A stretch of 22,968 nt of DNA from Ignisphaera sp. (GTDB lineage Archaea; Thermoproteota; Thermoprotei_A; Sulfolobales; Ignisphaeraceae): contig JAWAHS010000010.1 in NCBI GenBank assembly GCA_038889075.1, positions 1-22,968 of the forward strand, given 5' to 3'. The position numbers were made by a program, and so were the translations under genes. The notes beneath the pieces were generated by a model. It was not told the origin of the DNA and did no database searches. It saw only the letters and a list, made by a program, of their open reading frames with translations. Positions 2,523-19,349 of this stretch are shown here, in pieces (positions within the stretch are counted from its first letter, which is position 1; each line of letters begins with the position of its first letter).

Positions 2523-2630
2523 GTGGAGCTGGATCCTGCAATAAGCTTAGGCTATGTACTATCGATACTAGTGCTATTTCTAGGGATAGCAGTAAGCGTC
2601 TACATGAATTCTAGGAGAAGAGGTGGATGA
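2523..2630 (+). CDS. 35-aa single-TM membrane protein, probable accessory subunit of the symporter
   Basis: GGGTG RBS, GTG start; MELDPAISLGYVLSILVLFLGIAVSVYMNSRRRGG is one hydrophobic helix with a basic tail; its stop overlaps the symporter start (ATGA). Confidence 0.65.
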   Translation: MELDPAISLGYVLSILVLFLGIAVSVYMNSRRRGG

Positions 2631-4141
2631 TTATTGTGGTGCAACAACCCGTACCGGGCGGCGCCACTAGTATCGACACCATCATAATATTCGCTGTACT
2701 GGGTGCAACTGTTGCAATAGGGTTTGTAGGCCATAGAGCAAGCAGTACCATAGCTGGATACATGTTTGCAAATAGAAGCCTAGGTCCATGGCTTCTATCG
2801 TTCTCCATAATGGCAACCTACTTTAGTGCAGCATCGTTCCTAGGTGGAGGTGGTGCTACCTATCTCTACAACCTGGGTTTCGGTGCATGGTTAACGGCTT
2901 GGCATGTCATAGGGGTTGTGGCTCTCTGGCTCATTGTTGCTGGTAGGCTATTCGACTACATATCGAAGGCTAGGGTTATGAGTATACCGGAGCTCATAGA
3001 GTATAGATATGGAAGCTTTGCAGCAAGGCTGATCGCTTCCTCAATAATAGTAGCTCTATTTACACTCTACCTCTCGAGCGTCTACAAAGGAGGTGCCGTA
3101 GTAATAGCATCTCAGCTTAGAGTAGATCTACAGATAGCATTGTTACTACTTGCTGTACCGGTGGTGCTGTATCTAGTTGTTGGAGGGATGAGGGCTGCTA
3201 CGGTAAACAACCTCTTCCTAGGGTCTATGATGCTTACAGCAGCTGTACTAGCCTTCTACTACATTATGAGCTACGTCGGAGGGCCTTTAAATGGGTTGAA
3301 GATGCTTGCAAACACAACAGTTCTAGGTAGATACCCTGGTACACTCTGGCTAAGGATGGATGGTATGGGTCCTCCTCCAGCAATGGAGAAGAACGCTGTA
3401 CCGCTGCTTATAATGAGCATAGCATTCTCTATAGGTATGGCCCAGGTAGCGTTGCCAAACCTATTGATACAGTTCTATGCAGCTAGAGACTATAGAGCTA
3501 TTGAGAGAGGGAGGTTAATCGGACCTATACTCGTTGCTCTCTATGCTATTCTGATGTTCTCCCTCGGAGCATTCTGCCACCTAATAATAGACGATAAGCT
3601 CCAGCTCCAGGAATTGGCACAGCTTATGAAGGATACCGACTGGGTTATACCGAAGACCATTTCCCTCATTGTGCAGCCAGCTGTAAAAGGATTTATATTG
3701 GCAACACCTGTGGCAGCATCAATATCCACCATAGCACTAACAGTTCTAACACTTACAAATACTGTCACTAGAGACTTTATACAGCCGTTCATAGAGATTA
3801 GGAGAGAGAGTACTCTGGTGGTAATAGTTAAGCTGGTGTCGGCTATATTTGCATTGATACCGGTAATGCTAACGCTAATAGAGAATAGGCTTATAGTAGA
3901 AATCGTTGGAGCAGCCTTTGGAACAGTATTTGCCTGCTTCGTAGGTCCGATAACCATCGGTCTATACTGGAGGAGAGCATCTAGGGAAGGCGCTATAGCC
4001 TCTATGATTGTAGGTGTAGTAGTAGGTATAGCATGGTACCTATATCTATACAGAACAACGTGGATATATCCAACGATACCAGCAACAATACTATCTCTAC
4101 TAGCATTCACAGTACTTAGCATTGCTAAGAAGCGCAGATAG
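2627..4141 (+). CDS. Sodium:solute symporter (SSS; PanF/PutP-like), substrate unknown
   Basis: About 13 TM segments; YMFANRSLGPW, ATYFSAASFLGGGG, SIPELIEYRYGS, GGMRA, AASIST, GLYWRRASREGA. Confidence 0.92.
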   Translation: MIIVVQQPVPGGATSIDTIIIFAVLGATVAIGFVGHRASSTIAGYMFANRSLGPWLLSFSIMATYFSAASFLGGGGATYLYNLGFGAWLTAWHVIGVVALWLIVAGRLFDYISKARVMSIPELIEYRYGSFAARLIASSIIVALFTLYLSSVYKGGAVVIASQLRVDLQIALLLLAVPVVLYLVVGGMRAATVNNLFLGSMMLTAAVLAFYYIMSYVGGPLNGLKMLANTTVLGRYPGTLWLRMDGMGPPPAMEKNAVPLLIMSIAFSIGMAQVALPNLLIQFYAARDYRAIERGRLIGPILVALYAILMFSLGAFCHLIIDDKLQLQELAQLMKDTDWVIPKTISLIVQPAVKGFILATPVAASISTIALTVLTLTNTVTRDFIQPFIEIRRESTLVVIVKLVSAIFALIPVMLTLIENRLIVEIVGAAFGTVFACFVGPITIGLYWRRASREGAIASMIVGVVVGIAWYLYLYRTTWIYPTIPATILSLLAFTVLSIAKKRR

Positions 4142-4165
4142 AACGGTAGATGGATATATAATACA

Positions 4166-4182
4166 GATAAACTTTTTTTATC
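4166..4182 (+). terminator. Probable oligo-T terminator downstream of the symporter
   Basis: T7 run at 4173-4179 inside GATAAA..TTTATC inverted repeat, about 30 nt after the stop codon. Confidence 0.5.
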
Positions 4183-4369
4183 AGTACACCATCTTCTTCT
4201 TAGAAGAATTCGATGCTGTTTATTGTAGCGGTATTTTGATGGGATGAACCGAGTAGGCTATACGATCGTTCTACCAACTCTGCATGTACTATATTTAAGC
4301 TTGGTAGTATTAGGGTATCTGAGTACTGTAGGCTTAATATGGATTGGCAGGTTTCGGGGTTTGGGAGGA

Positions 4370-5488
4370 TTGGTTGGAGAGGGATTTCTACTTAAGTGTC
4401 TACACTGTGGCTACGAGGTTCAGAGCAACACCCTTCTCCAATCCCATTGTCCCCGCTGTAGCGGTGTACTAGAAGTAGAGTATAGCAGACCTGTCTTCAG
4501 AGTTGCTACTGGTGAGAAAGGTTTATGGCGCTACCTACCCCTGCTTCCACCCATACGTAGCAGAATATCCCTCGGTGAAGGCCTTACCCCTCTAAGTAGA
4601 GTAGGTAGAGTATTCATTAAGAATGAACGGTATAATCCAACTGGTTCCTATGCCGATAGAGCTTCAGCTATTATAGCATCCTATGCTAGGGATCTAGGGG
4701 TAGAAAGAGTTGTAGCACCTTACGTAAGAGATTTTACACGCTCCCTCACATACTATCTACTCAGCATAGGGATTGATGTAGGTGTTGCAGTAGATAGCAT
4801 CTTCAGTATTGAACTCGACGATATTGTATTCTTTTCATCGAAAGATGTAGACGTAGTTGGAAAGGCCAATGTTAGAGGGCTATTCATAGACTACGTTAAT
4901 CCCCTTACTATAGAGGGTCTTAAGACTATAGTTTTCGAAGTATACGAGAAGAAAATAGATGTAGAGCATATAGTTGTCCCTGCTGAAACTGGTCTACTCT
5001 CCATATCTATACAGAAGGGCTTAAGAGATCTCCAGCTTGGTGGAAGCGAATTTAATTGCGAGGTAGTTGCAGCTAAGGTTAAGGGCTTCGACTCCCCTCT
5101 ACTCCGCGGTATCCACGGTATACGCATCGTTGAAGTTCTAGAGGATGAGGTCTACGAAGCGTATAAGAAGTTTGTTAGCAGAGGCTTTAAGACCAAGCCT
5201 CTAGCTGCCCTTAGCTACTATGTAGCCGAATCTCTAGGTAGTGCCGTAGCTGTTGTAACTATGGGCTTTGCCTCTCCATCTGGGGGTAGAAGTATGGTTA
5301 AGAGATTTGTAATGGATGTTCTATCGAGGAAAAGTCGTTTAACAGCCTATGAGATCTGGAGGGAAAAACCTATCTACACCTTGAGGGCTGTATACAAAGC
5401 TGTTAAAGATATGGAGGCTAGGGGAGAGTTGTGCTTTGATATAGCGGCTAGGGGGAAGCGCAAGATTAAGCTATACAGACTCTGTTGA
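4370..5488 (+). CDS. Threonine-synthase-like (fold-type II PLP) protein lacking the catalytic Lys, with N-terminal Zn ribbon and C-terminal wHTH
   Basis: CLHCG..CPRCSG; GLWRYLPLLP, SLGEGLTPL, KNERYNPTGSYADRA (canonical FKDRG), NPLTIEGLKTIVFE; C-terminal VLSRKSRLTAYEIW..TLRAVYKAVKDMEARG..RKIKLYRL. Start approximate (TTG 4370 after GGAGG; the ORF is open from 4244). Confidence 0.8.
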   Translation: MVGEGFLLKCLHCGYEVQSNTLLQSHCPRCSGVLEVEYSRPVFRVATGEKGLWRYLPLLPPIRSRISLGEGLTPLSRVGRVFIKNERYNPTGSYADRASAIIASYARDLGVERVVAPYVRDFTRSLTYYLLSIGIDVGVAVDSIFSIELDDIVFFSSKDVDVVGKANVRGLFIDYVNPLTIEGLKTIVFEVYEKKIDVEHIVVPAETGLLSISIQKGLRDLQLGGSEFNCEVVAAKVKGFDSPLLRGIHGIRIVEVLEDEVYEAYKKFVSRGFKTKPLAALSYYVAESLGSAVAVVTMGFASPSGGRSMVKRFVMDVLSRKSRLTAYEIWREKPIYTLRAVYKAVKDMEARGELCFDIAARGKRKIKLYRLC

Positions 5489-5559
5489 TAGAGCTACTGA
5501 ACGTTCAACAAAGCATAATTCTCTGTACCTTGAATCCCAAACTCCACAGGGTTTGGAAT

Positions 5560-6309
5560 ATGAAGGTATATGGGATATTGAGAGCAATCGTATTTACCGT
5601 AGTAACATTCATAGCAACAGTACTCCTAGTTATAGAAACGCCTGCAACTGGCGGCTACTTTAACCTAGGTGAAGCATCGATATACGTTATAGCATCCATG
5701 GCCCCTCCACTAACTACAGCTATAGCAGCGGGTCTTGGCCCAGCGTTAGCCGATCTAGTTCTCGGATACTGGTACTTTGCCCCAGCAACATTTGTTATAA
5801 AGTTCTGTGAAGGTTATATAGTCTCATCGCTGATGAAGAGGCTTGGGAAGCGTAGGGTGGAGAGTGTTATGAGGATACTAACTGTTATAGTAGGTGTACT
5901 GCTGTCTACTGTTATCCTAGCCACCATGGTTGGCGGTGGAGGAGGTGAAGTAACAGGGGCTACCTTTAGCTGGACAGAGACCTCAATTCTAGGTTTAAGG
6001 ATTGCTGTACCGAGTTTTGCTATACTCCTTCCATCCTATGCATGGCTAGCTATATCAGCACTAGTGGTAGTTCTATCGGTAGCTATAGCTTTTGTAAGAA
6101 AACCGTATGTACTAGCCATGGCTGTAGGGGGCATGGTTATGGTGCTGGGGTACTTCCTCTACGAATTCTTCATATCTAATCCGCTGATACTAGGTAGAGA
6201 TCCTGTGGGAGCAGTATTCGAGGTACCTGTTAACATAGGGCAGTTCACAGCTGGGATACTGCTATCCATACCTGTGGTGCAATTCATTGAAAGAGCTGCT
6301 AAAGGTTGA
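5560..6309 (+). CDS. ECF transporter substrate-binding S component (COG4720-like)
   Basis: PATGGYFNLGE, G.ALADLVLGYWYFAPATFVIKFCEG, GGMVMVLGYFLYE, EVPVNIGQ; ATG 5560 preferred over TTG 5485. Confidence 0.85.
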   Translation: MKVYGILRAIVFTVVTFIATVLLVIETPATGGYFNLGEASIYVIASMAPPLTTAIAAGLGPALADLVLGYWYFAPATFVIKFCEGYIVSSLMKRLGKRRVESVMRILTVIVGVLLSTVILATMVGGGGGEVTGATFSWTETSILGLRIAVPSFAILLPSYAWLAISALVVVLSVAIAFVRKPYVLAMAVGGMVMVLGYFLYEFFISNPLILGRDPVGAVFEVPVNIGQFTAGILLSIPVVQFIERAAKG

Positions 6310-7555
6310 GGGCTTAAGGATATACGCTGGGGGTAGACCAGTAACACTGGTGGAGTCCCTGGATGTAGGAGAAGGAGAGGTCGTACTCGTTACAGGTCCT
6401 TCTGGAAGCGGTAAAACAAGTTTTTTAAGATGTATTGCGGAGGTCAACGATATATTCGGCATTACCTGCTCCGGATACATGGCCCTAGGCATCGATAGGG
6501 ATGAGCTCAGCTACATACCCCAGGAGCCTTGGTTCGGCATGGCATCTCCATATCCAATCCTAGAGGTGAGGAGTTTCAGTAACGCTGATGACTACTCTGT
6601 GCGTAGATATGCTAAGCTTTTCAATGTGGAGCACATTCTCGAGTCCAACTCTATGGATTTAAGTGCTGGTGAAATCCAGAGGATACTCTTTATAGAATCG
6701 GTGCTAAGCAGATCAAAGCTGGTGCTGGTAGATGAGGTTACAGCATACCTAGATGAAGAATCTAGGAAACAGCTGGTTAACGTAATTGAAGAAATGCGAA
6801 GCGAATTCGGGGTTGCATTCATTGTTGTAGACCACGATGTAGAGCTTTGGAGTAGGCACATCGATAAGGTTCTGTACCTGGAACCTACAAGTAGCTCGAG
6901 AATCTACTACAATGTAGATGAAACTCCGCTTATGGCGAGTATGGATAGGCTTAGAGCAGAGGTTGAGGAGCTATCTAGAGAACTCGCGGAGAAGGTTGGT
7001 GAGGAGCCGATTCTAAAGCTATACAATGTCTGGTTTAGATACCCGGATTCAACAGATTTTGTAATCAAGGGTGTCAACATCGATGTGAAACGTAGTGAGA
7101 TGATGGTAATCCGAGGCCCCTCTGGAAAAGGTAAGTCAACACTTCTAAAGATCATGGCCGATATCTACAGGCCTAAGAAAGGGGTTGTGCTAAGGTATGC
7201 TAAGGATATACAGTACATTCCAGAGAATCCACTACTATACCTTTCAGAGCCTACACCTAGAGATGAGCTTATGAAGAACACAGATCTAGCTGTAAAGTCC
7301 AATCTCATCCGCGTTCTCGATACACCGATAATGAGGTTGAGCTCTGGGGAGAAAAGACGTTTAGCAGTAGCATCTGCTTTAGCCCGCGGCTCCGATCTGA
7401 TCCTGCTGGATGAACCGTCTGTTGGATTGGATGCGGAGAACTTTATCAGCATTCTCAAGCTGTTAATCGAAGCAGTTTCAAGGGGGGTGAGCATAGTTAC
7501 TGCAACCCACAGTAGATTGCTATCCTCAGTTACCCGATCTGTGGTTCAACTCTAG
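6287..7555 (+). CDS. ECF/ABC ATPase with two tandem nucleotide-binding domains
   Basis: Walker A GPSGSGKT and GPSGKGKST; signatures LSAGE and LSSGE; Walker B VLVDE and ILLDEP; H-loops VDHD and ATHS. Confidence 0.9.
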   Translation: MKELLKVEGLRIYAGGRPVTLVESLDVGEGEVVLVTGPSGSGKTSFLRCIAEVNDIFGITCSGYMALGIDRDELSYIPQEPWFGMASPYPILEVRSFSNADDYSVRRYAKLFNVEHILESNSMDLSAGEIQRILFIESVLSRSKLVLVDEVTAYLDEESRKQLVNVIEEMRSEFGVAFIVVDHDVELWSRHIDKVLYLEPTSSSRIYYNVDETPLMASMDRLRAEVEELSRELAEKVGEEPILKLYNVWFRYPDSTDFVIKGVNIDVKRSEMMVIRGPSGKGKSTLLKIMADIYRPKKGVVLRYAKDIQYIPENPLLYLSEPTPRDELMKNTDLAVKSNLIRVLDTPIMRLSSGEKRRLAVASALARGSDLILLDEPSVGLDAENFISILKLLIEAVSRGVSIVTATHSRLLSSVTRSVVQL

Positions 7556-7572
7556 AAGTTGGGTGCAGTACC

Positions 7573-8286
7573 TTGGGGAGGTATGCAAGAGCACTATCAG
7601 CAGTGGTGACCGTTATTCTACGTTCACTATTTCTATACGGTTTTTCAAAGCTTAGGAGAGGCTCGATATCTCTGAGTATTGTACATGTTGTTCTAGCGAT
7701 AATCAGTGGGTTGGGCAGTGTTGAGCTACTGGTTCTCTACACTATACCGATAGCTACTCTGTACACAGCTCTAAGAATGTATATCCTCCTAATCTACACA
7801 CTAGCTGTATCCTCTATACCTGGGCTATGGATGGCCCTAACGCAGCTACTCCTAGATGTAGCCAAAGGCGTTGTGGATCCGTATAGGTATCTAGCAATAT
7901 ACGCTAGAGCAACCCTCATATCCCTAAACATAATGTTTACACTACATACTCTAAATCCTACGGAGATTTCAAAGCTATTCGATAGGGCGAAGAGATTTAG
8001 TGGAGTATACGCACAGCTGTTCATGAGGATAGCATCCTTCTTAGTAAAGGAGGGTATAGAGATTGTGCACACACATTCACTTAAGAGAGAGAGCTTATGG
8101 AAAACACTAGCAATACTTATACTAAGAGGAGATGAAATTGCCAAAGGCTTTAGCGAAGGACTTATACCAAAGTACCGTAGGTATAGATCTACGGCCATCT
8201 ACGACATAAAGACCGTATTACTACAGCTAACGATTATAATATATGATGCTATTCTAATCCTAATCACAACTACATTTATACAGTAA
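7573..8286 (+). CDS. Probable ECF transmembrane T component (divergent EcfT/CbiQ-like)
   Basis: Hydrophobic N-terminal half, HTLNPTEI motif, amphipathic coupling helices (LRGDEIAKGF); directly follows the S and ATPase genes. Start may be GTG 7603 or 7606. Confidence 0.65.
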   Translation: MGRYARALSAVVTVILRSLFLYGFSKLRRGSISLSIVHVVLAIISGLGSVELLVLYTIPIATLYTALRMYILLIYTLAVSSIPGLWMALTQLLLDVAKGVVDPYRYLAIYARATLISLNIMFTLHTLNPTEISKLFDRAKRFSGVYAQLFMRIASFLVKEGIEIVHTHSLKRESLWKTLAILILRGDEIAKGFSEGLIPKYRRYRSTAIYDIKTVLLQLTIIIYDAILILITTTFIQ

Positions 8287-9521: not shown

Positions 9522-9747
9522 TCCAATATACCCGGCATTCCAGGTTCTAGACTCTAGAAGAGATCACAATATAAAAAGCTGATAAAGTGTAACTCTAGAG
9601 CTCTACCACACCTAAGCTCTTACAGCTCCATACCTAGAGGGTACTACGTCTTCGATGGCTATAGCTAATACACCTCTAGCTGTACTCCAGCAATAGTGTC
9701 AACAGCGATATTTATTATCTCTTCCCGTACATCTCTGCAGGAGGCCT

Positions 9748-10306
9748 ATGTCATGTCTGTATATAGAGGTTATTGTAGGGTTTGCATCGACAACGGCTAC
9801 AATAGTTATTAGCATAGCCGTCTTTGAGCTTTTGGCTCAGTAAAATTTCAGAATATCGATGACAGATTTACTGAATTTGAGGAATATGTTGATGGGAGAT
9901 GGTGGTATGGAGAAGCGTTTTGATGGGAGGCTTAACAGACTTACACATCCTCTGCAATCATTTAATAGGTTTCTGATATCCTACCTCACTAGCGGGTGGA
10001 TTATCCCTGTAAGGTCTAGGGATCTCCTGATATCAAAGGCTAGAAATATTCTAAAGCATACTGTGGCGAATCCATTCTCTTCTCTAAGGAGGAGCTTGAG
10101 AAGCTTAGAAACTATGTAGAGAATGTTCTGGATACATTTACAGTGAGGAAGCATATGAGTTTCTAGAACTTGCAAGAAAGTTTGTCCTAGAGTATGGAAA
10201 TAGGGTCGAGCCTTGGAAACCGCACCTCTACGTAGCCCTTGTGTACTGCTATACACTGAGAAGGGTATATGGAGAAAAGAGAGCAGGGGAGAAGCAGGAG
10301 AAGTAG
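9748..10306 (+). pseudogene. Possible fragmented gene of unknown family
   Basis: Consecutive coding-like segments in different frames: 9748-9843 hydrophobic peptide after GGAGG; 9859-~10060; FSKEELEKLR; then KLCRECSGYIYSEEAYEFLELARKFVLEYG ending at TAG 10306. Confidence 0.35.
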
Positions 10307-10356
10307 AACCATTTCCACAACAATGCTCAGCTCCTAGATTCTCAACTACACTATTG

Positions 10357-10430
10357 CTACCCATATACCGCTCTTCCACTCTAAAAATTTAGACTACCCA
10401 TATACCGCTCTTCCACTCTAAAAATTTAGA
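10357..10430. repeat. Exact 37-bp tandem duplication
   Basis: CTACCCATATACCGCTCTTCCACTCTAAAAATTTAGA at 10357-10393 and 10394-10430, with no spacer. Confidence 0.95.
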
Positions 10431-10510
10431 AATCTGCGATCGGATGTATTAAAAATGGATTGGGTAGATATAGAAAAAGGTTGTTAGGTAAATAACAACA
10501 ATCTCTATTT

Positions 10511-12136
10511 CTATCTAATTATTAGTGGTAGTGTGTATATTAGGAATGATGTTAGGGCTGAGCCTGCAATGCTTCCAGAGCCACCTATGAAGAATACATC
10601 CCTTACTCTCTCTCTGTATATTCTACTTAGGATCACCCTTGCAGCTATGGTTGCAAGGGATACTACACCAGCCATTGGATTGAGTATCATGAGACCTGTG
10701 GCTAGTAGGATGCCGATCTGCTTTTCCGGACCTCCAATAAGCTGTACTATAAACCCTATTGGTGCCCACATAAGTAGGTAGTTCATTAGCTGGGGATCTG
10801 CGGCTGCAAAGGAGGCTGTTGCAAGGGTTCTTGCTGCAGGTGGGAAGAGGTCGTGTGTAAAGTAGCCTGTGTAGACGAGGAGCACTATAGCTAGAGCAAT
10901 TAGGAGCGCCACTACCTCTGCAAGGAATTGCCAGAATCTACCAGCACGTTCAAATTTTGGATCCTTACCCTCTCCTCTCAACATCCACCCGGTCTTTAAA
11001 TCATATGATAGATCGGCCATTCCAGGACCTGTGGCAGCTACATATGCAGCTCCGATGGCGAGGGCAACTGGTGGGAAGCCTAGGAGTAGCCCTATCATTA
11101 GGGTAGCTAGTGCTGTAGCAAATGCTGGGAACCACCCTGCATGCATTCCAGAGAGTGCGCATACAAGGGTTGTCCACAGAGCACCGACACCAAAGTACAG
11201 TATCCACGCAATTGTATGGCTAAGGCTCATCATGTTGTTGAGGCCTAGGCCAAAGGCAAGGGCTGCAGCTCCAATAAGCCATAGCACTAGTGCTAGTGAA
11301 ATGCTTCTAAGAGCCTCACCTGCACTAACAAGGGTTGATATCGCTGGGCTGCTGGAACCTGCTGAGGATCTAGGGGAGGACATCCTTCTTCTGGTTCTGA
11401 TATACAGTATAACAAATTGGAGAATGGCTGCAATGCCAGCCCCTATCATGATTCCATGTGGGGCGTACATCTTATATAGATCGATTCCAAACCACTGGGG
11501 TGAATATGCCCTTAGGATAAGCCCTATTCCAAACATTGCTATAGCCCATACATTGCCTATCAATGCTATACCCATAACGTCACCCGGGTACCTAAAGTAT
11601 GTAAGTAGTGCTCCAACAATACCACCGTATAGGAGGAGCAGTGCTTTCTTTCCCCTCTCGAGGCCGGCTCTTATAGATAGTGCTGTAGACACCCCTATTG
11701 GCCACGGATTTGATGCTGGATAGAATGGCGAGTCGAATATCTTATAGGCTAGAATAAGATCTATCAAACCAGAGAACAGTAGACCCACTAGAGCCCCGTA
11801 GATCATATATGGAAGTAGCACACCAGCTTTTGCACCCGCCAGCCATACAACGGCCAGACCTAGTAGCAGAACATTTCCAGCTGTAAATGTGGCTCCAGAG
11901 ATCACGGTCTGTATAATATTTACCCTGTGTACGTTCAGGAAGTACTTTCTCGTAAATCTCGTTGGGAGGTAGCCCACACCTATGGCTATAAGAGCTCCTA
12001 TTATAGAGGTATTAGGGTTGATCCCTACACGAACTATAAGCTCAACCCCTATTATAGCACCCAGTACACCTATTAAAGCCCCTGCTACAAGTAGTACAGG
12101 TTCGTATAGCTTCGGGTGGTACTCACCCGAACTCAT
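10511..12136 (-). CDS. OPT/YSL-family oligopeptide transporter
   Basis: Highly hydrophobic 541 aa; GINPNTSIIGA, N.IQT.ISGATF, PWPIGVSTA, GMHAGWFPAFA, ADLSYDLKTGW, GILLATGL; GGTGA RBS upstream. Confidence 0.85.
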   Translation of the reverse strand: MSSGEYHPKLYEPVLLVAGALIGVLGAIIGVELIVRVGINPNTSIIGALIAIGVGYLPTRFTRKYFLNVHRVNIIQTVISGATFTAGNVLLLGLAVVWLAGAKAGVLLPYMIYGALVGLLFSGLIDLILAYKIFDSPFYPASNPWPIGVSTALSIRAGLERGKKALLLLYGGIVGALLTYFRYPGDVMGIALIGNVWAIAMFGIGLILRAYSPQWFGIDLYKMYAPHGIMIGAGIAAILQFVILYIRTRRRMSSPRSSAGSSSPAISTLVSAGEALRSISLALVLWLIGAAALAFGLGLNNMMSLSHTIAWILYFGVGALWTTLVCALSGMHAGWFPAFATALATLMIGLLLGFPPVALAIGAAYVAATGPGMADLSYDLKTGWMLRGEGKDPKFERAGRFWQFLAEVVALLIALAIVLLVYTGYFTHDLFPPAARTLATASFAAADPQLMNYLLMWAPIGFIVQLIGGPEKQIGILLATGLMILNPMAGVVSLATIAARVILSRIYRERVRDVFFIGGSGSIAGSALTSFLIYTLPLIIR

Positions 12137-12164
12137 CTGTACTCACCTGCAGAGCTCTACATAG

Positions 12165-12220
12165 GAACAGATATATAACCTTTTTGTATGCTATCTTCAT
12201 ATATAGATTTATATAGTTTC
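12165..12220. promoter_or_regulatory. Back-to-back promoters for the OPT gene (-) and the DUF1177 operon (+)
   Basis: Minus strand AAAAAGG-TTATATAT at 12171-12185; plus strand TTTATATA at 12208-12215; each lies about 35 nt from its start codon. Confidence 0.6.
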
Positions 12221-12250
12221 TATAAACATACTAATACCGGTGGTAATCGC

Positions 12251-13198
12251 TTGTCCACCTTGAAACACGTAATGGAGATAGCAGACTTGCTGGAGGATCC
12301 AAAGGTAAATGGTGAGGTTATCAGAGGCTTCTTCACTGCAAAGGGCTATAGTGATATTGGGATAGAGATCGAGACTATTAGAGGAGATAAGGGCTCTACG
12401 GATTTTATAACAGTAAGGATCCCCGGGGCTAGCGGTAGGCTATCCGGTGGTTCATCACCTACACTTGGGATCGTTGGTAGGCTTGGGGGTATAGGTGCAA
12501 GGCCTGCTCTGATAGGGATGGTATCCGATGCTGATGGCGCTATAGTTGCACTAGCATCCGCATATAAGATTGCTGAGCTGAGGAAGCGGGGTGATGTACT
12601 ACCTGGAGATGTTGTTGTTACAACCCATGTATGTCCAGCAGCTCCTACAAGACCTCACAAGCCTGTACCGATGATGGACTCCCCAGTGGATATATTTACA
12701 CTACTTAAAAGGGAGGTTAAGGATGAAATGGATGCTATTCTATCAGTTGATGCAACCAAGGCGAATTGGGTTATAAAGCATACAGGATTTGCAATAACAC
12801 CAACGGTTAAGGAGGGATGGATCCTTAGGGTGAGCCCTGATTTAATAGATATATACATTAGGGTTACAGGAGAGCCCCCTGTCATAGTTCCGATAACAAT
12901 GCAGGATCTAACACCATATACAACACCAGTGTACCATATAAACAGTATGATGCAGCCATGGCTCTACACCACAGCACCTGTTGTAGGTGTCGCCATAACA
13001 GCTAGAATGGCATTGCCTGGTTCTGGAACAGGTGTAACAAATCTCATTGCATTAGAGCAAGCAACGAGATTTGTTGTAGAGGTTGCTAAGGACTTTACAT
13101 CAGGTAGGGCGAAATTCTATGATGAAGGTGAGTGGGAGACCTTGATGAAGATACACGGATCTGTGAAGAATATTTTGGGTAGAGGTGCACCGGCTTAG
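12251..13198 (+). CDS. DUF1177 family protein
   Basis: KGSTDFI, PTLGIVGRLGGIGARP, GMVSDADGA, THVCP.APTRPH.PVPMM.SPVD, ILSVDATKAN, PTVKEGWILRVS, QDLTPY...YHINS..QP; TTG 12251 after GGTGG RBS. Confidence 0.85.
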   Translation: MSTLKHVMEIADLLEDPKVNGEVIRGFFTAKGYSDIGIEIETIRGDKGSTDFITVRIPGASGRLSGGSSPTLGIVGRLGGIGARPALIGMVSDADGAIVALASAYKIAELRKRGDVLPGDVVVTTHVCPAAPTRPHKPVPMMDSPVDIFTLLKREVKDEMDAILSVDATKANWVIKHTGFAITPTVKEGWILRVSPDLIDIYIRVTGEPPVIVPITMQDLTPYTTPVYHINSMMQPWLYTTAPVVGVAITARMALPGSGTGVTNLIALEQATRFVVEVAKDFTSGRAKFYDEGEWETLMKIHGSVKNILGRGAPA

Positions 13199-13210
13199 CT
13201 AGGCGATTCT

Positions 13211-13867
13211 ATGGTCTATAGAGTAGGGCTTATTAGAGTCGTTACACTAGATGATGAGAATATTTTAAATCTGCATGGAAGGGTTATCGAGAAGATATTT
13301 CCAGAGCTAAGGGTTGTGAGTAGGTGTATCTGGGATCAGCCAAGGGGTATATATGATCGTGAGAGTGAGGAGGTTGCAAAACCCAAGATACTGCAACTTG
13401 CTAGAGAGTTTGAGAGAGATGGTGTTGATGCTATCATAGTGAGTTGCGCTGCTGATCCAGCGGTAGAAGAGGCTAGAAGGATACTGAGGATACCTGTTAT
13501 AGGTGCGGGCTCATCTGCAGCTGGATTGGCTCTATCATATGGTAGGAGGGTAGCTGTTTTGAATCTAACAGAGGATACTCCAGAGGTTATTAGGAGAATT
13601 CTCGGTGAGCATCTGGTTGCTGAAGATAGACCTATAGGTGTTAGGAACACAATTGATCTGATGAGTGGATGGGGTAGGGAAGCTGCAAGGGAAGCTCTGA
13701 AGCGAATTTCCGAAAAGAGTATAGATGTTATTGTACTTGGATGCACTGGGTATACCACCATAGGTTTTGCATCAACTGCTAGAGAGATTGTTAGAGTACC
13801 TGTTATAGATCCTGTTGTAGCAGCTGGAGCAGCTACATTACACATTCTAAAAAGTAGTCTAGGGTGA
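13211..13867 (+). CDS. Asp/Glu/hydantoin racemase family protein
   Basis: Two catalytic-type Cys motifs, IVSCAADP and VLGCTG; IPVIGAG, VPVIDPV. Confidence 0.88.
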   Translation: MVYRVGLIRVVTLDDENILNLHGRVIEKIFPELRVVSRCIWDQPRGIYDRESEEVAKPKILQLAREFERDGVDAIIVSCAADPAVEEARRILRIPVIGAGSSAAGLALSYGRRVAVLNLTEDTPEVIRRILGEHLVAEDRPIGVRNTIDLMSGWGREAAREALKRISEKSIDVIVLGCTGYTTIGFASTAREIVRVPVIDPVVAAGAATLHILKSSLG

Positions 13868-13874
13868 AGCTACA

Positions 13875-14948
13875 CTGAGGCTAAAGATCGACGAATCCAT
13901 AGCCGAGGCAGCTATCTATGGAGGCGCATTTTTTGGCGGTGGTGGAGGAGGTGATGTAGCTACAGGATTGAAAATAGCTAGAATAGCTATAGAGTTTGGA
14001 GATGTTGTAGTTGTAGACATAGAATCGGTATCCGAGGATAGATACATAGTAACCTCATCAATAGTCGGTGCACCTGCAGCTAAGGAGAAGTATCTACTAC
14101 CTACACATATGGTTAGATCAGCGGAGCTCTTCATAGACACATTTGGAGAGAGTGTAGGGGGATTCATATCGTCTGAAAATGGAGGAGCTTCTACGGCTAA
14201 CGGATGGATTCCATCAGCTGTTCTCGGCATTCCAATAGTTGATGCACCTGCTGATGGTAGAGCTCACCCAACAGGTGTTATGGGTTCCATGGGGCTGCAT
14301 AGGTTGAAGGACTACGTATCTCTACAGGTTGCAGTTGGAGGTAGTAAGCTGGCTGGAAGATATGTTGAGGTTATTGCAAGGGGTTCCCTGGATAAAGTTG
14401 ACAGAATTATCAGGGAGGCTGCTGTTCAGGCTGGGGGTATGGTGGCTGTAACTAGAAACCCCCTTAAACCAGGCTACGTGAAGGAGAATGCAGCTGTTGG
14501 AGCTCTTAGTAAAGCTATAGAGGTTGGTAGAATTATTAGGAGGCACTGGGGTGATGCTGAGGCTATATGCAGTGCAGTTATAGGATACCTTGGTGGGGGC
14601 AGTATAGTTGATAGGGGTGTGGTTGAAAAGGTATCGCTGGAGACTAGAGGTGGTTACGATATAGGAAGCGTTGTTGTAAGAGGTGGAGGAGGTATATATG
14701 AAATAACGTTTTGGAATGAGTATATGACGTTGGAGGACTCTATGGGTAGAAGACTTGCAGCATTTCCAGATCTGATAGCGACTATAGATGCTGAATCAGG
14801 TGTGCCGATAACCTCTGCAGAGATTAGAACGGGCAATAGTGTATTTATAGTTGCGATTCCCAAGGAATATATACCTCTCGGTTCGGGTGTCAAGGACCCT
14901 GAGATACTAGCACAAGTGGAAAGTGTTGTAGGTAGAAAGCTTGGGTGA
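13875..14948 (+). CDS. DUF917 family protein (thiohydantoin desulfurase/desulfhydrase-like)
   Basis: AAIYGGAFFGGGGGG (upstream of the ORF-track start 13968), VGAP, SENGG...NG, IVDAPADGRAHP, NEY, FPDLI; the frame opens after TAG at 13860-13862 and the likely start is CTG 13875. Confidence 0.85.
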   Translation: MRLKIDESIAEAAIYGGAFFGGGGGGDVATGLKIARIAIEFGDVVVVDIESVSEDRYIVTSSIVGAPAAKEKYLLPTHMVRSAELFIDTFGESVGGFISSENGGASTANGWIPSAVLGIPIVDAPADGRAHPTGVMGSMGLHRLKDYVSLQVAVGGSKLAGRYVEVIARGSLDKVDRIIREAAVQAGGMVAVTRNPLKPGYVKENAAVGALSKAIEVGRIIRRHWGDAEAICSAVIGYLGGGSIVDRGVVEKVSLETRGGYDIGSVVVRGGGGIYEITFWNEYMTLEDSMGRRLAAFPDLIATIDAESGVPITSAEIRTGNSVFIVAIPKEYIPLGSGVKDPEILAQVESVVGRKLG

Positions 14949-14954
14949 AGGACT

Positions 14955-15614
14955 TTGAGAAGAGTAGGTTTTGTAACAATCGGACAGTCTCCGAGGGTCG
15001 ATGTAGTATCGGAGATGCTGCCCATTTTAGGTAACATTGAAATTGTTGAGTGTGGTGCTCTAGACGACCTTAGCAGAGACGAGATAGAGCTCCTAGCTCC
15101 TAGAGAGAGTGGATACATACTAGTCTCTAGACTTAGAGACGGCTCTGAGGTTAAAATGGATAGGGAGAAGATACTTCCACTTGTCCAGAGGTGTATAGAT
15201 AGGGTTGAAAGAGAAGCAGATGTGGTTGGACTTCTCTGTACAGGTGAATTTCCAGAACTTAAATCGAGTAAGCTTCTAATCGAGCCATCGGAAATCCTGC
15301 TAAAGGTTGTAGAGGCGTTAAAGGTCAGAAGACTAGGTGTTGTTGTACCTAACCCAGGGCAGATCGAGCTAACCAAGATAAAATGGTCGAAGGTTACGGA
15401 AGCCGTTACCGTTGTTAGCGCATCGCCGTATACCGAAGGTATTGAGGAGATTAGAAGGGTCAGCACCCATCTACGGAATTGTGATCTAATTGTTCTGGAT
15501 TGCATCGGATATACTACGGATGCTAGAAGAGCTGCTGTAGAAGCTACCGGAAAGCCTGTACTACTTCCAAGAACCCTCATGGCCCATATAATAAGAGATC
15601 TTATTGAGGGATAG
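14955..15614 (+). CDS. aroM: AroM family protein (racemase-like fold)
   Basis: VTIGQSPRVDV, GALDDL, LVSRLRDGSEV, LLCTGEFP, ASPY, LDCIGYT, PVLLPR. Confidence 0.85.
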   Translation: MRRVGFVTIGQSPRVDVVSEMLPILGNIEIVECGALDDLSRDEIELLAPRESGYILVSRLRDGSEVKMDREKILPLVQRCIDRVEREADVVGLLCTGEFPELKSSKLLIEPSEILLKVVEALKVRRLGVVVPNPGQIELTKIKWSKVTEAVTVVSASPYTEGIEEIRRVSTHLRNCDLIVLDCIGYTTDARRAAVEATGKPVLLPRTLMAHIIRDLIEG

Positions 15615-15616
15615 AG

Positions 15617-16609
15617 ATGGATCTACCAAGAGATTATGTGCTTAAATTCAATGGAGAGATCTTCAGAGCCAGTAGCATAGTATTGACACAGTGTCTGGGG
15701 GTTAGAAATGGTGAGACTGTTTTAATTGTTACAGATGAGATTCTTAGAGGAATAGGTCTCCATATATGGCTGTGTGCAAGAGGGCTCGGTGTTGAGGCTG
15801 TATATATTGAGATGTTCCCTAGGAAGATGCATGGTGAGGAGCCGCCGCGACCTGTTGCTGAAGCTATGAAGTCTGCAGATGTTGTTATTGCACCAACATC
15901 TAAATCCCTAACACATACGGTTGCCAGGGAGGAGGCTACCAAGAGGGGTTGTAGGGTTGCAACAATGCCTGGTATAACTGAGGAGGTATTCATAAGAACT
16001 ATGAATGTAGACTACAGCTACATCCATAGAATCACCGAGGCTATTGGAGGGATCCTGGACAGAGGGAGTAGCGTTAGGATAGAGAGTAGCAGTGGGACGA
16101 ACCTAACGTTCTCTATCGAGGGTAGAAGAGCTAGAAGAAGCTCCGGAATACTTAGAAATCCCGGTGACTGGGGCAATCTCCCAGGTGGTGAAGCATATAT
16201 TGCACCAATTGAGGAGAGCGCTAATGGTGTTGCTGTAATAGATGGTTCTATGGCAGGTATCGGAAAGCTGGCAAATCCCATAAAGATAGTGTTTAGGGAG
16301 GGTTCAATACTATCTATAGAAGGTGGAGATGAGGCTAGAAAGCTAGAGCAGATTCTGTCACAGTATGGTGAGGATGCTAGGAGGCTTGGAGAGTTTGGTA
16401 TAGGTACAAATCCTGGTGCAAGGGTAAGCGGTATCGTTCTTGAGGACGAGAAGGTGCTGGGCACAGTACACATAGCTATTGGAAGCAACTTTGGATTTGG
16501 TGGAAAGATTAAAGTACCCCTACACCTAGATGGCGTTATACTCAAACCTACAGTATATATAGATGGAGATGTGATTATGAAAGAGGGGAAGCTTGCTATA
16601 GAGGTGTAG
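15617..16609 (+). CDS. Aminopeptidase T/M29-like metallopeptidase (thermophilic metalloprotease fold)
   Basis: HGEEPP, SLTHT.AR, ATMPG, GNLPGGEAYIAP, LGEFGIGTNP, LEDEKVLGTVHIAIG.N, HLDG. Confidence 0.85.
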   Translation: MDLPRDYVLKFNGEIFRASSIVLTQCLGVRNGETVLIVTDEILRGIGLHIWLCARGLGVEAVYIEMFPRKMHGEEPPRPVAEAMKSADVVIAPTSKSLTHTVAREEATKRGCRVATMPGITEEVFIRTMNVDYSYIHRITEAIGGILDRGSSVRIESSSGTNLTFSIEGRRARRSSGILRNPGDWGNLPGGEAYIAPIEESANGVAVIDGSMAGIGKLANPIKIVFREGSILSIEGGDEARKLEQILSQYGEDARRLGEFGIGTNPGARVSGIVLEDEKVLGTVHIAIGSNFGFGGKIKVPLHLDGVILKPTVYIDGDVIMKEGKLAIEV

Positions 16610-16615
16610 AGGAAA

Positions 16616-17140
16616 ATGTCATCAGACGATATCCTCGAAATCATAAAGGGTAGGAGGTGTGTAAGAAGATTCAGAGATGGAAGGGAAGATATACCAGATG
16701 AATATATACGTAAAATTCTAGAAGCCGGTATATGGGCACCAAGTGCGGGCAATATACAGCCATGGGAATTCGTAGTTGTTAGGGATAGAGATAAAATTGA
16801 TAAAATAAAGCTCGTTTCACCTGGACTCTTTGGAGATCCCTCAGCAATAATAGTTGTGTGCATAAATCTAGAAAGGGCTAGAAAGGGTGGAAAAGGCGGT
16901 GAGGTAATGGCGATTATGGATGTATCGATGGCTACGCAGAACATGATGCTAATGGCATATAGCTTAGGAATAGGTTCGTGTCCCATTGCATCATTCAGTA
17001 AAACAGCGGTTAAGGAACTGCTTGACATACCTGATCACATTGAGCCGGTACTACTTATAACACTTGGATATGTCGATGCCTGGCCGAATCCTCCAAAGAG
17101 AAGGTCTCTAGAGGAGGTGGTGCACTATGAAGGGTACTGA
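16616..17140 (+). CDS. Nitroreductase family flavoprotein
   Basis: RRCVRRF, APSAGNIQPWEFVVV, DVSMATQNMMLMAYSLGIGSC, LGY, PKRR. Confidence 0.92.
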   Translation: MSSDDILEIIKGRRCVRRFRDGREDIPDEYIRKILEAGIWAPSAGNIQPWEFVVVRDRDKIDKIKLVSPGLFGDPSAIIVVCINLERARKGGKGGEVMAIMDVSMATQNMMLMAYSLGIGSCPIASFSKTAVKELLDIPDHIEPVLLITLGYVDAWPNPPKRRSLEEVVHYEGY

Positions 17141-17426
17141 AGGTATTACTAGGGATCCGCATTTCAAACTTCTATCATTTCTAATAACAAGTGCCAGGGG
17201 ATGTGTCGATGAACCCTCACTCTACGGCACCCTAAGACTCATAGATGCAGCAGCGAGATTGATAGATATAATGAAGGAGGAGGGGAAAGCGACGGAGGAG
17301 CTACTCAATCTCAAGAAAACAATAGAGGAGAATATCGCTCTCGTAATGTACGATGAAAAGGCATATATAGAGTTTCTAGATAGATTAGTAAGAGATCTAG
17401 CCAAGATTATTAAGAAAGCATCTTGA
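17127..17426 (+). CDS. Small helical protein, DUF6092-like
   Basis: LITSARGCVDEPSLYGTLRLIDAAARL motif; GAGGTGG RBS; overlaps the nitroreductase stop by 14 nt. Confidence 0.7.
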   Translation: MKGTEGITRDPHFKLLSFLITSARGCVDEPSLYGTLRLIDAAARLIDIMKEEGKATEELLNLKKTIEENIALVMYDEKAYIEFLDRLVRDLAKIIKKAS

Positions 17427-17606
17427 CAGTAGAAGCACACACTCTACTACCCCTACTTATACTTATACAATCTACCTCCAAAGACCCCTCAAATCACAAA
17501 CAGTTAGACAGTTAATTAATATAATCTATATAAATCATAGTAGTACTAGCTATTAACAGTACAACCGCTGTTATAGAACGATCGATGCTGATCCACCGGT
17601 GTTTTC

Positions 17607-18287: not shown

Positions 18288-19349
18288 ATGGTAGCAGTGG
18301 ATGTAGAATCTATGCCGAAAATCATAGGCTTTTCAAGAAATAGGTACTACATCTACATCGATGATCTTCCTCTTCTAGGTCACATTGCATTTGGTGTTAT
18401 CGATAGAGGAACAAATGTTATTCAGATAAGACCAACAACAGTATGTCCATACAACTGTATATTCTGTAGCGTTGATGCAGGTCCTTTCTCAAGAAATAGG
18501 CAATCGGAGTTTATTATTGATGGAAAGCTGCTTGTTAGATGGGTTAGGCAGGTTTATGATGCAAAGGGTGGAGAGGTTCTGGAGGGTCTAATCGATGGTG
18601 TCGGCGAACCCCCTACACATCCACAGATTGTGGATATTGTTAGGGAATTGAAGAGCTTTCTACCTCGGGTAGCCATGGAGACTAGGATAGGTACACTTAC
18701 GAAGGAACTTATAGATAGGCTTGAGGAGGCAGGTCTCGATAGATTAAATGTAAGCATCGATACCCTAGATGAGGGGAAGGGTAGGTATCTCCAAGGTGTT
18801 GAATGGTACAGTGTTAGAAGGGCTATGAAGCTTATAGAGTACACTGTTAAGGAAACTAGTATAGATGTTCACTTAACACCGGTTTGGATTCCACGTGTAA
18901 ATGATGTGGATATTGAGAACATTATTGCATGGGGTATTGAAATAGGTGTTGGAAAGAGGTTTCCACCATTTGGTATACAGAAGTATGAGGTTCACAAATA
19001 CGGAAGGAAGGTTGAGGGTGTAGAGAGGGTTGGATGGAGGAGATTTAGAGAGTTTCTCGAGAGACTGGAGGAAAAATACGGTGTACCACTTTACTATAGG
19101 AGGATAGATTTTGGGATGAAAAGGGCTAGGAGGCTTCCACTGAAGTATTCTAAGAGGGAGGTTATACAGGCTATCATAATATCTCCTGGCTGGTTAAAGC
19201 ATGAGGTTATAGCTGTGGACAGAGAGCGTGAAGTATTGATTACAGTAGTGGGTATGGTATGGAGTCCGAATATGCAGGGAAGGGTTGTAAAGGTTACTGT
19301 AATCGATAATGTTGACGGTATATACATTGCAAAACCTCATGTAATGTGA
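18288..19349 (+). CDS. Radical SAM protein (COG2100-like archaeal family) with C-terminal beta-barrel
   Basis: PLLGHIAFGVIDRGTNVIQIRP, CPYNCIFC (CxxxCxxC), DGVGEP, GIQKY..HKYGRK; ATG 18288 lies about 24 nt after a TTTTAAG box, suggesting a leaderless mRNA. Confidence 0.85.
   Translation: MVAVDVESMPKIIGFSRNRYYIYIDDLPLLGHIAFGVIDRGTNVIQIRPTTVCPYNCIFCSVDAGPFSRNRQSEFIIDGKLLVRWVRQVYDAKGGEVLEGLIDGVGEPPTHPQIVDIVRELKSFLPRVAMETRIGTLTKELIDRLEEAGLDRLNVSIDTLDEGKGRYLQGVEWYSVRRAMKLIEYTVKETSIDVHLTPVWIPRVNDVDIENIIAWGIEIGVGKRFPPFGIQKYEVHKYGRKVEGVERVGWRRFREFLERLEEKYGVPLYYRRIDFGMKRARRLPLKYSKREVIQAIIISPGWLKHEVIAVDREREVLITVVGMVWSPNMQGRVVKVTVIDNVDGIYIAKPHVM

Follow-up and report, generated by a model that had tools for sequence, protein, structure and literature searches.

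The window analysed here is a stretch of 22,968 nucleotides from the hot-spring archaeon Ignisphaera sp. (assembly GCA_038889075.1, contig JAWAHS010000010.1, positions 1 to 22,968), and our subject is a cluster of eight genes within it: an operon of seven co-oriented genes and the gene of an OPT-family transporter that diverges from them. We argue that the probable role of this cluster is the breakdown of small peptide products that are ring-shaped or contain D-residues. An open-reading-frame (ORF) list and a Pfam scan of the window bear out the eight genes, their families, the spacings, the 14-nt overlap and the 114-bp divergent region on which the original prediction, made from the sequence alone, had been built, and all eight assignments exceed the curated cut-offs of Pfam. 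The features are as follows; CDOA and CDOB denote the two subunits of cyclodipeptide oxidase (CDO).

10511..12136, minus strand: OPT-family transporter, 541 aa, divergent to the operon (Pfam OPT, 62.9 bits against a cut-off of 25.8)
12137..12250, no strand: A/T-rich divergent intergenic region, 114 bp, presumed bidirectional promoter (motifs tatatag, tctataaa and gatatata)
12251..13198, plus strand: DUF1177 protein, 315 aa, TTG start (Pfam, 415.8 bits)
13211..13867, plus strand: Asp/Glu/hydantoin-racemase family protein, 218 aa (Pfam Asp_Glu_race, PF01177, 99.5 bits)
13875..14948, plus strand: DUF917 / S-Me-THD-like protein, 357 aa if CTG 13875 is the start (Pfam S-Me-THD_N/C, 71.1/103.7 bits)
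14955..15614, plus strand: AroM protein, 219 aa, TTG start (Pfam, 252.9 bits)
15617..16609, plus strand: short M29-like protein of metallo-aminopeptidase fold, 330 aa (Pfam Peptidase_M29, PF02073, 49.6 bits against a cut-off of 27)
16616..17140, plus strand: CDOA, AlbA-like nitroreductase-fold subunit binding flavin mononucleotide (FMN), 174 aa (Pfam Nitroreductase, 114.7 bits)
17127..17426, plus strand: CDOB, DUF6092 / AlbB-like small subunit, 99 aa (Pfam DUF6092, PF19585, 98.7 bits)

From the ORF coordinates, the gaps along the operon are 12, 7, 6, 2 and 6 nt, and CDOA and CDOB overlap by 14 nt. The TTG start of DUF1177 agrees with a 315-aa database copy of the protein. The 7-nt gap between racemase and DUF917 presupposes the CTG start at 13875: there is no ATG, GTG or TTG between the in-frame TAG at 13860 and TTG 13968, and the conserved GxGGG motif lies upstream of that TTG. 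In 31 of 32 homologous DUF917 ORFs a canonical start stands 18-26 codons before GxGGG, and at that spot the window has the CTG, from which the N-terminus reads LRLKIDES (VRIKVDEK or MVIRVDES in relatives). The same CTG codon occurs in a related contig of an RNA run and in a contig of a DNA run. It represents either rare CTG initiation, perhaps by termination-reinitiation 7 nt past the racemase stop, or a mutation of the start codon.

The cluster is also represented in environmental RNA. One metatranscriptome run contains 70% of the locus's sampled words, in contigs about 99% identical to the window:

10500-12140: depth 69, OPT gene
12245-13312: depth 15.6, bridges DUF1177/racemase
13354-13663: depth 7.5, inside the racemase gene
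13687-14617: depth 17.8, bridges racemase/DUF917
14637-16899: depth 23.5, bridges DUF917/AroM, AroM/M29-like and M29-like/CDOA
16882-17444: depth 16.9, bridges CDOA/CDOB

All six operon junctions are thus bridged, which upholds the co-oriented operon of the original prediction at the level of contigs rather than of proven transcripts. The regions 9604-10405 and 18426-19227 have no RNA-library cover, and a DNA run is flat at 16.1 over the whole stretch. Two contig edges, 12140 and 12245, each lie within 6 nt of a start codon. These data fit transcription of the OPT gene and of one 5.2-kb operon, both starting at most 6 nt from their start codons. Two sister RNA runs (X23 and X24) gave no contig on this stretch, which does not argue against expression.

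A cyclodipeptide-oxidase-like pair and its partner enzymes

The original prediction took the last two genes for a nitroreductase and a DUF6092 protein without established function, but relatives of both are known. By homology, the pair is a CDOA/CDOB (AlbA/AlbB-type) cyclodipeptide-oxidase-like enzyme, since its best PDB matches are subunits of AlbAB and of a second CDO, since the catalytic Tyr, the E-P...R motif and the FMN-phosphate arginines are kept, and since the genes overlap by 14 nt and an identical pair has been catalogued. The catalogue is that of Andreas & Giessen, 'Cyclodipeptide oxidase is an enzyme filament' (bioRxiv 2023; Nat Commun 2024, PMC11055893). There PF19585/DUF6092 is the CDOB (AlbB) family, the nitroreductase-fold partner is CDOA (AlbA), and overlap of the two genes is typical (PMC11055893). 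For CDOA, the second CDO (9exv_A, E 2.3e-29) and albonoursin synthase AlbA (8uc3_A, E 3e-29) head a list of 64 PDB matches; CDOB matches AlbB (8uc3_D, E 7.8e-8) and 9exv_C (E 7.1e-7). The flavin redox step that had been predicted therefore stands in so far as the pair would be a flavoenzyme; its kind, a C-alpha/C-beta dehydrogenation of cyclodipeptide-oxidase type as homology to AlbAB suggests, had been missed.

The likeness to AlbAB of Streptomyces noursei (PDB 8uc3) extends to both subunits and to the overlap of their genes. CDOA R13, R17, R162, N46 and S126 align with AlbA R24, R28, R175, N55 and S139, and CDOB E29, P30, Y33, R37 and M74 with AlbB E33, P34, Y37, R41 and M78; the window pair thus shares the catalytic Tyr, the E-P...R motif, the FMN-phosphate arginines, N55 and S139. 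All 15 CDOA sequences compared keep the arginines R13 and R17, and E29, P30, Y33, G34 and R37 are invariant in a 14-sequence CDOB alignment. AlbB Y37 is the proposed catalytic base, and its Y37F mutant is inactive (PMC11055893). Unlike AlbA, the window protein has Asp102 in place of Cys115, the covalent-FMN cysteine, and hence would carry no 8-alpha-S-cysteinyl FMN; that cysteine is found only in CDPS-linked CDOAs (PMC11055893), where CDPS stands for cyclodipeptide synthase. The source genome, which is 99.6% complete, gave 0 matches to CDPS (PF16715), with a B. subtilis positive control detected, and the setting of the window pair looks catabolic whereas that of AlbAB is biosynthetic.

Could the locus nevertheless serve biosynthesis or tailoring and yield a dehydrogenated, cyclic, peptide-like secondary metabolite, as albonoursin-type clusters do, with the OPT protein as exporter? 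We consider this very improbable. Besides the missing CDPS, there is no synthetase-like gene by Pfam in or adjoining the operon; the partners are racemase-like and hydrolase-like enzymes and peptide-type importers; and core loci in bacteria carry peptidases together with catabolic-type IclR, PucR and GntR regulators. On the other side, all characterised CDOs are biosynthetic and the CDO paper keeps unknown secondary metabolites possible (PMC11055893). It is the absence of a CDPS from the genome, together with the attached transporter, that leads us away from biosynthesis.

Two of the partners appear to be epimerases. The racemase matches PDB 2eq5_A ('hypothetical hydantoin racemase') at E 2.7e-91 and, more distantly, other putative hydantoin racemases and the epimerase OpaE; its Cys79 and Cys178 are kept in 35 of 35 sequences. 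AroM passes NCBIfam PRK10481 (224.6 bits against a cut-off of 198), and a sequence search of the PDB found no solved relative for it. Because hhalign aligns AroM with the racemase family at a probability of 95.7% (E 9e-9), and because its C95 and C183 fall in register with C79 and C178 and are conserved (in 42/42 and 39/42 sequences), AroM is very probably a second two-thiol epimerase of the racemase superfamily. That AroM keeps both racemase cysteines is new here: only the CDO paper (PMC11055893) proved relevant in the literature searched for the AroM family, and no peptide epimerase of the Asp/Glu-racemase superfamily was found there.

Along its whole length the DUF917 protein aligns with the NCBIfam models of thiohydantoin desulfurase (NF058529, 306.6 bits against a cut-off of 440) and S-methyl-thiohydantoin desulfurase (NF058532, 274.4 bits against 450), and it matches PDB 2o3i at E 2e-10. 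It shares the two-domain architecture of these desulfurases, whose ergothioneine chemistry we take from the names of NCBIfam and Pfam models and from general knowledge. The original prediction had drawn a link to ergothioneine from this family. We find the link weak, and catabolism of ergothioneine or another thio-compound, with DUF917 as thiohydantoin desulfurase, hardly credible: despite the full-length alignment, both scores lie well under the equivalog cut-offs, the genome has no Urocanase-family or Lyase_aromatic-family gene and so lacks that pathway's partner enzymes, and its three DUF917-family copies stand in differing contexts. A literature search found no paper on a thiohydantoin desulfurase or on desulfurisation of ergothioneine thiohydantoin, and for DUF917 itself only the CDO paper (PMC11055893) was relevant. 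The second, better-scoring DUF917 copy (360 aa) lies on contig C2 at about 283-287.5 kb (L148:6363-10524) and adjoins a HyuA-like hydantoinase/oxoprolinase-A protein of 523 aa; the two genes are divergent from an NCS1 permease, with two PmbA/TldD peptidases downstream. This HyuA-DUF917-NCS1 locus is a separate module of cyclic-amide type in the same genome. The third copy is a fragment on contig C24.

The M29-like protein matches its Pfam profile over positions 205-350 of 406 only. Its best PDB match is NicX (7cn3, E 5e-12), a dioxygenase of M29 fold and not a peptidase, followed by the aminopeptidase PepS (4icq, E 1.7e-4). It carries E192, E259, H285, H303 and D305, which, by the positions in the S. 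aureus AmpS literature, we take to be the M29 di-metal ligands. In the short M29-like family, 14 of 20 relatives have the E/E/H variant of the window and 6 of 20 have Q/H/E; the latter occurs in L134, L136 and other loci and may not be a peptidase. At what is presumably the His ligand of NicX, the window protein has Glu and the Q/H/E variant has His.

DUF1177 has more than 5,600 homologs in a database search, and a search for 'DUF1177' in the literature returned no relevant paper. We built an AlphaFold (AF2) model from 14 sequences (pLDDT 75.8, pTM 0.83, four conserved loops below 50). Structure prediction followed by Foldseek had been proposed as a check with the original prediction, and for DUF1177 it does yield a fold: the top Foldseek matches are M17 leucyl aminopeptidases (E 6.1e-10, TMq 0.56), and VIA-align places the model at Z 17.3 (root-mean-square deviation 3.2 over 225 residues) to 5k8m_B, an M20 aminohydrolase, and at Z 16-17.3 to M20, M28 and M42 enzymes including 5-nitroanthranilate aminohydrolase, TET aminopeptidases and DapE. 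In 79 sequences D93, D95, S165, D167, T169, N172, D219, H229 and N231 are invariant. A profile search of the PDB found nothing at E<=1, hence no solved relative; 14 members searched against Pfam at E<=10 matched no peptidase family, only DUF1177 and one stray match at 0.16; hhalign against the genome's own M42 peptidase gave a probability of 0.6%; and the ESM Atlas gave neither a usable match nor a model. Since a sequence-level tie to the M17, M20, M28 or M42 families was not found, we limit the claim to a predicted fold of Zn-exopeptidase/amidohydrolase type and do not extend it to family membership.

Genomic neighbourhoods and modularity

A scan of one genome per species gave 572 confirmed DUF1177 relatives, and the counts below use the best 80 loci, which come from both archaea and bacteria. 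Partners were called by iterated profile searches of the window proteins against all ORFs of these loci; many loci end at contig ends, so these numbers are lower bounds. Partners within 5 kb of DUF1177, first among all loci and then among those with at least 5 kb on both sides, are:

AroM: 36/80; 19/43
DUF917: 32/80; 14/43
Racemase: 30/80; 14/43
OPT: 18/80; 11/43
M29-like: 9/80; 4/43
CDOA / CDOB: 5 / 5 of 80; 1 / 1 of 43
None of the seven partners: 33/80

DUF917 and racemase are present in all five of the CDO-containing loci, and one Ignisphaera-labelled contig (L009) is the only locus with all seven partners, in the order of the window and with 66-87% protein identity. Because the partners recur beside DUF1177 in archaea and bacteria, and because L009 keeps the full order, the arrangement is beyond chance; the neighbourhood check on whether the genes co-occur in other genomes thus came out in favour of the original prediction. 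Elsewhere the role of transporter falls to a Dpp-type ABC system or to an NCS1 permease, and other recurrent neighbours are Dpp-type ABC transporters, IclR/PucR/GntR regulators, CN-hydrolase and an Amidohydro_3 protein. Database proteins moreover include fusions of DUF917 with DUF1177 (668 aa), of DUF1177 with AroM (535-536 aa; one cluster, 15 member sequences) and of DUF1177 with a Dpp-type ABC ATPase bearing the oligopeptide C-terminal domain, and from these fusions we conclude that the families are functionally linked. DUF1177 is also fused to a PucR-type helix-turn-helix (HTH) domain and to a DAO/FAD oxidoreductase (database proteins P0124 and P0121); in the PucR-HTH fusion it is possibly a ligand-sensing regulator domain.

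The loci without partners are mostly 16 from Streptomyces (L049 and 15 more), in which DUF1177 lies between S51 and M20 peptidases. S51 also follows AroM in four Enterobacterales loci (L048, L057, L061 and L075); overall S51 occurs in 20/80 and M20 in 21/80 loci. We take S51 to be the family of Asp-specific dipeptidase E and cyanophycinase, and these neighbours hint that the DUF1177 core acts on dipeptides with acidic residues.

Another reading is salvage of linear dipeptides with D- or iso-linked acidic residues (D-Asp/D-Glu, beta-Asp) that arise from heat damage or from bacterial cell-wall debris. Here AroM and the racemase would invert the residue while it is still part of the peptide, cleavage would fall to DUF1177 and the M29-like enzyme, and the CDO would be a loosely attached extra. 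This reading draws on the frequency of AroM beside DUF1177 and their occasional fusion, on the place of AroM, with both cysteines kept, in the Asp/Glu racemase superfamily, on the S51 neighbours in Streptomyces and Enterobacterales, and on the OPT and Dpp transporters. Murein-peptide recycling sets, which comprise LdcA, MpaA, the L-Ala-D/L-Glu epimerase YcjG and a dipeptidase, offer an analogy: there too a peptide that contains a D-residue becomes digestible through an epimerase, metallopeptidases and a peptide importer, and the pairing and fusions of DUF1177 with AroM fit this pattern, although the window epimerases belong to the Asp/Glu-racemase superfamily and the recycling epimerase to the enolase superfamily. 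We nevertheless judge this reading distinctly unlikely. It leaves unexplained DUF917, with its ring-acting relatives, and the hydantoin-racemase-like gene, both of which accompany the CDO in each CDO-containing DUF1177 locus; the CDO genes are tightly coupled by a 6-nt gap; a single RNA-library contig crosses the M29-like/CDOA junction; and the literature searched held no peptide epimerase of the racemase superfamily.

Anchoring the search on CDOB gives a complementary picture. In an even sample of the phylum comprising 401 genomes, CDOB was found in 31 including the source genome. DUF1177 occurs anywhere in the genome in 5 of the 30 others, and within about 8 kb of CDOB these 30 hold DUF917 in 7, racemase in 6, M29-like in 4, DUF1177 in 1, AroM in 1 and OPT in 0. 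Six of the 30 (L121, L127-L131, Thermoproteota) carry a fused CDOA/B as a single ORF of about 300-350 aa, a form mentioned in the CDO paper (PMC11055893). Beside a CDO, DUF917 often comes with a HyuA-like (hydantoinase/oxoprolinase A) protein as well as with either an NCS1 permease or an ABC system. Since both sets of counts show the partners mostly apart, the operon is a union of modules that mostly live separately, namely DUF1177-AroM, racemase-DUF917, M29-like and CDOA-CDOB, with an exchangeable transporter. Of these modules DUF1177-AroM makes up the conserved core; the CDO is less common and detachable. The description of the locus as a self-contained, complete pathway thus goes beyond what these counts allow.

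Candidate substrates and reactions

How might these enzymes work together? We propose that the OPT permease would import the substrate and that the racemase-like enzymes would set its C-alpha configuration. DUF917 would then attack the ring, and the dipeptide-like amide that results would be cut into amino acids by DUF1177 and the M29-like enzyme. The CDO-like enzyme would dehydrogenate a C-alpha/C-beta bond of the ring, with CDOB Tyr33 as base and hydride passing to FMN, the electrons going to some acceptor that is not O2, or to O2 where present. DUF1177 and AroM would form a deeply conserved couple of metallo-exopeptidase/amidohydrolase fold and two-cysteine epimerase, and the hydantoin-racemase-like enzyme would form a ring-directed pair with DUF917, the characterised relatives of which modify 5-substituted (thio)hydantoin rings by hydrolysis. 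The enzymes seem catalytically competent, since the two-Cys dyads, the E/E/H/H/D set of the M29-like protein and the DUF1177 fold with its invariant Asp/His residues are kept.

The importer, the two epimerases, the three hydrolase-fold proteins, the catabolic-type regulators in bacteria and the lack of any scaffold-forming enzyme support a role in catabolism or salvage, with small amides derived from amino acids as the imported compounds. Two lines of evidence bear on what these amides are. Cyclic amides are indicated because CDOs are known to act on diketopiperazines, DUF917 relatives on thiohydantoin rings, and because the racemase is hydantoin-racemase-like; peptide bonds are indicated because of the peptide transporters and the many exopeptidases. 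Diketopiperazines, which are cyclic dipeptides, reconcile the two lines; heat readily produces them from peptides and promotes their epimerisation. We therefore tentatively, and with somewhat less than even confidence, read the cluster as a composite catabolic or salvage locus for imported small amino-acid-derived compounds whose substrates would be 2,5-diketopiperazines, their epimers and the dipeptides formed when the rings open. The import, epimerisation and hydrolysis of the original prediction survive in so far as the Pfam families and their recurrence in genomes make a coherent cluster of transporter and enzymes; its completeness is supposition.

An alternative is a non-canonical route for using hydantoins or N-carbamoyl amino acids, in which the racemase would epimerise a 5-substituted hydantoin, DUF917 would open or modify the ring, DUF1177 would release the amino acid and the CDO-like enzyme would dehydrogenate the side chain. 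Classical hyu operons comprise an NCS1 permease, a hydantoin racemase, an amidohydrolase-type hydantoinase and a carbamoylase of M20 or nitrilase type. The window resembles them in its succession of transporter, C-alpha racemase, ring-acting enzyme and metallo-amidohydrolase-fold enzyme, in having the same racemase family, with closest solved relatives annotated as hydantoin racemases, and in the M20-like fold of DUF1177, whose model aligns with M20 amidohydrolases including allantoate amidohydrolase (Z 16.3). It differs in having OPT for NCS1 (and Dpp-type peptide ABC systems in relatives), DUF917 for a dihydropyrimidinase-type hydantoinase, a DUF1177 protein without a sequence-level tie to M20, and extra AroM, M29-like and CDO genes; Pfam finds no Amidohydro, CN_hydrolase or Transp_cyt_pur among the eight genes, and the operon thus has neither an amidohydrolase-superfamily hydantoinase nor HyuA. 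Full-length matches of DUF917 to both thiohydantoin models, the company of HyuA-like subunits and NCS1 permeases that DUF917 and CDO keep elsewhere, and the HyuA-DUF917-NCS1 locus of the source genome speak for hydantoins, as does the suggestion of hydantoin- or allantoin-like substrates in the CDO paper (PMC11055893). Set against this are the two DUF917 scores below cut-off and the recurrent S51, M20 and M29-like exopeptidases, which point to peptide bonds. Natural 5-substituted hydantoins are, moreover, scarce compared with peptides. On balance we regard hydantoin utilisation as unlikely.

Several observations weigh against a diketopiperazine pathway shared by the whole cluster. The substrates and all reaction steps of the eight proteins are what we infer, and a single common substrate for all eight genes is an assumption, because the CDO is dispensable to the DUF1177 module and usually occurs without DUF1177: the CDO pair is missing from 75/80 DUF1177 loci, and DUF1177 is near CDOB in 1/30 genomes. 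The cluster is accessory in the genus, since DUF1177 and CDOB were not found in three other species of it; when these three were checked for an empty site, orthologs of the flanking genes proved to be 107 kb apart in one of them (G211) and only 32-67% identical, too distant and too divergent for a comparison. The only named relatives of DUF917, those of the NCBIfam models, act on thiohydantoins and not on diketopiperazines. DUF1177 has no sequence-level tie to metallopeptidases, and the conserved loops of its model are of low pLDDT. The RNA-library contigs come from one run of one study, and contigs are no proof of a single transcript, of its strand or of its ends. Finally, the characterised CDO substrates are 2,5-diketopiperazines only (PMC11055893), but the window pair differs from AlbAB in the pocket: CDOA has Gly45 at the position of AlbA S54, whose equivalent is thus missing, and CDOB has Tyr75 where AlbB has the conserved G79. 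In AlbAB, S54 hydrogen-bonds to the catalytic Tyr, and S54A entails an approximately 62-fold loss of activity (PMC11055893). These two replacements suggest that the pocket may suit a substrate other than a diketopiperazine, and the authors of the CDO paper propose hydantoin- or allantoin-like substrates, or unknown metabolites, for CDOs without CDPS (PMC11055893).

Surroundings, published catalogue and significance

The flanks of the window also encode a cyclophilin-like protein, DHH, DUF429, radical SAM, cysteine desulfurase and GH38 proteins, and by Pfam annotation these genes have no evident tie to the cluster. Upstream, at 2627-8286, lies a block that may form an uptake unit of its own and likewise shows no evident tie to the cluster; it comprises an SSF sodium:solute symporter, a PALP (PLP-dependent) enzyme, an ECF-type S component, a double ABC ATPase and an ORF of 237 aa that belongs to no family. 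The stretch 9604-10405 has no ORF assigned to a Pfam family, and Rfam and tRNA scans of the window gave no match. In the non-coding DNA 3' of OPT the motif 'tctaaaaatttaga' is repeated at 10380-10393 and 10418-10431, and 37 bases (10356 to 10394) are missing from one DNA-run contig, which suggests that the copy number of the repeat downstream of OPT differs between strains.

The original prediction held the system to be undescribed. In fact this type of cluster is in print, bioinformatically: Andreas & Giessen report 274 CDO operons, 88% of them without CDPS, the latter enriched in PF01177 racemases, DUF917, AroM, OPT/ABC/EamA transporters and different types of peptidase, and including Thermoproteota and anaerobes (PMC11055893). 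Row 169 of their Supplementary Data 1, labelled as an Ignisphaera genome, lists a CDOA and a CDOB letter-identical to those of the window (PMC11055893). The present cluster resembles this class in its overlapping CDOA/CDOB without CDPS, in its racemase, DUF917, AroM, OPT and peptidase neighbours, and in its occurrence in Thermoproteota. The difference is one of anchor: the paper starts from CDOB, whereas our counts make DUF1177-AroM the core and the CDO detachable. DUF1177 and M29 are not named in the main text of the paper, and DUF1177, PF06675, M29, PF02073 and PF03169 are absent from its text-form supplements (PMC11055893). Among the papers listed by our literature searches we found no occurrence of DUF6092 or PF06675, no experimental work on CDO clusters without CDPS and nothing relevant on a gene cluster for diketopiperazine degradation; the expectation that no experimentally defined pathway exists for this cluster is in line with that search. 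Within the same literature, the DUF1177-centred core, the fold of DUF1177, the fusions, the independence of the DUF1177 and CDO modules and the expression evidence were not found in print.

Five of the eight proteins, namely DUF1177, AroM, this DUF917 subfamily, the short M29-like group and the CDOs without CDPS, belong to families without an applicable demonstrated reaction, and their genes are strongly conserved, fused in some lineages, present in both prokaryotic domains and represented in an environmental RNA library. The cluster also lends the published CDO catalogue a concrete, testable physiological context. It is a doubtful though real prospect that the cluster would prove to be the first genetically defined route of 2,5-diketopiperazine breakdown, with an oxygen-independent CDO-like dehydrogenase, two epimerases of the Asp/Glu-racemase superfamily acting on rings or dipeptides, DUF917 as the long-sought ring-opener and DUF1177 as a new metallo-dipeptidase family; the core of DUF1177, AroM and DUF917 would then have one and the same role from hyperthermophilic archaea to enterobacteria. 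Should a cyclic dipeptide or a peptide with a D-residue prove to be the substrate, the cluster would supply enzymes for the poorly understood recycling of peptides and necromass, especially in hot environments, and its thermostable racemases, ring-opening hydrolases and O2-independent C-alpha/C-beta dehydrogenase would be of biocatalytic interest.

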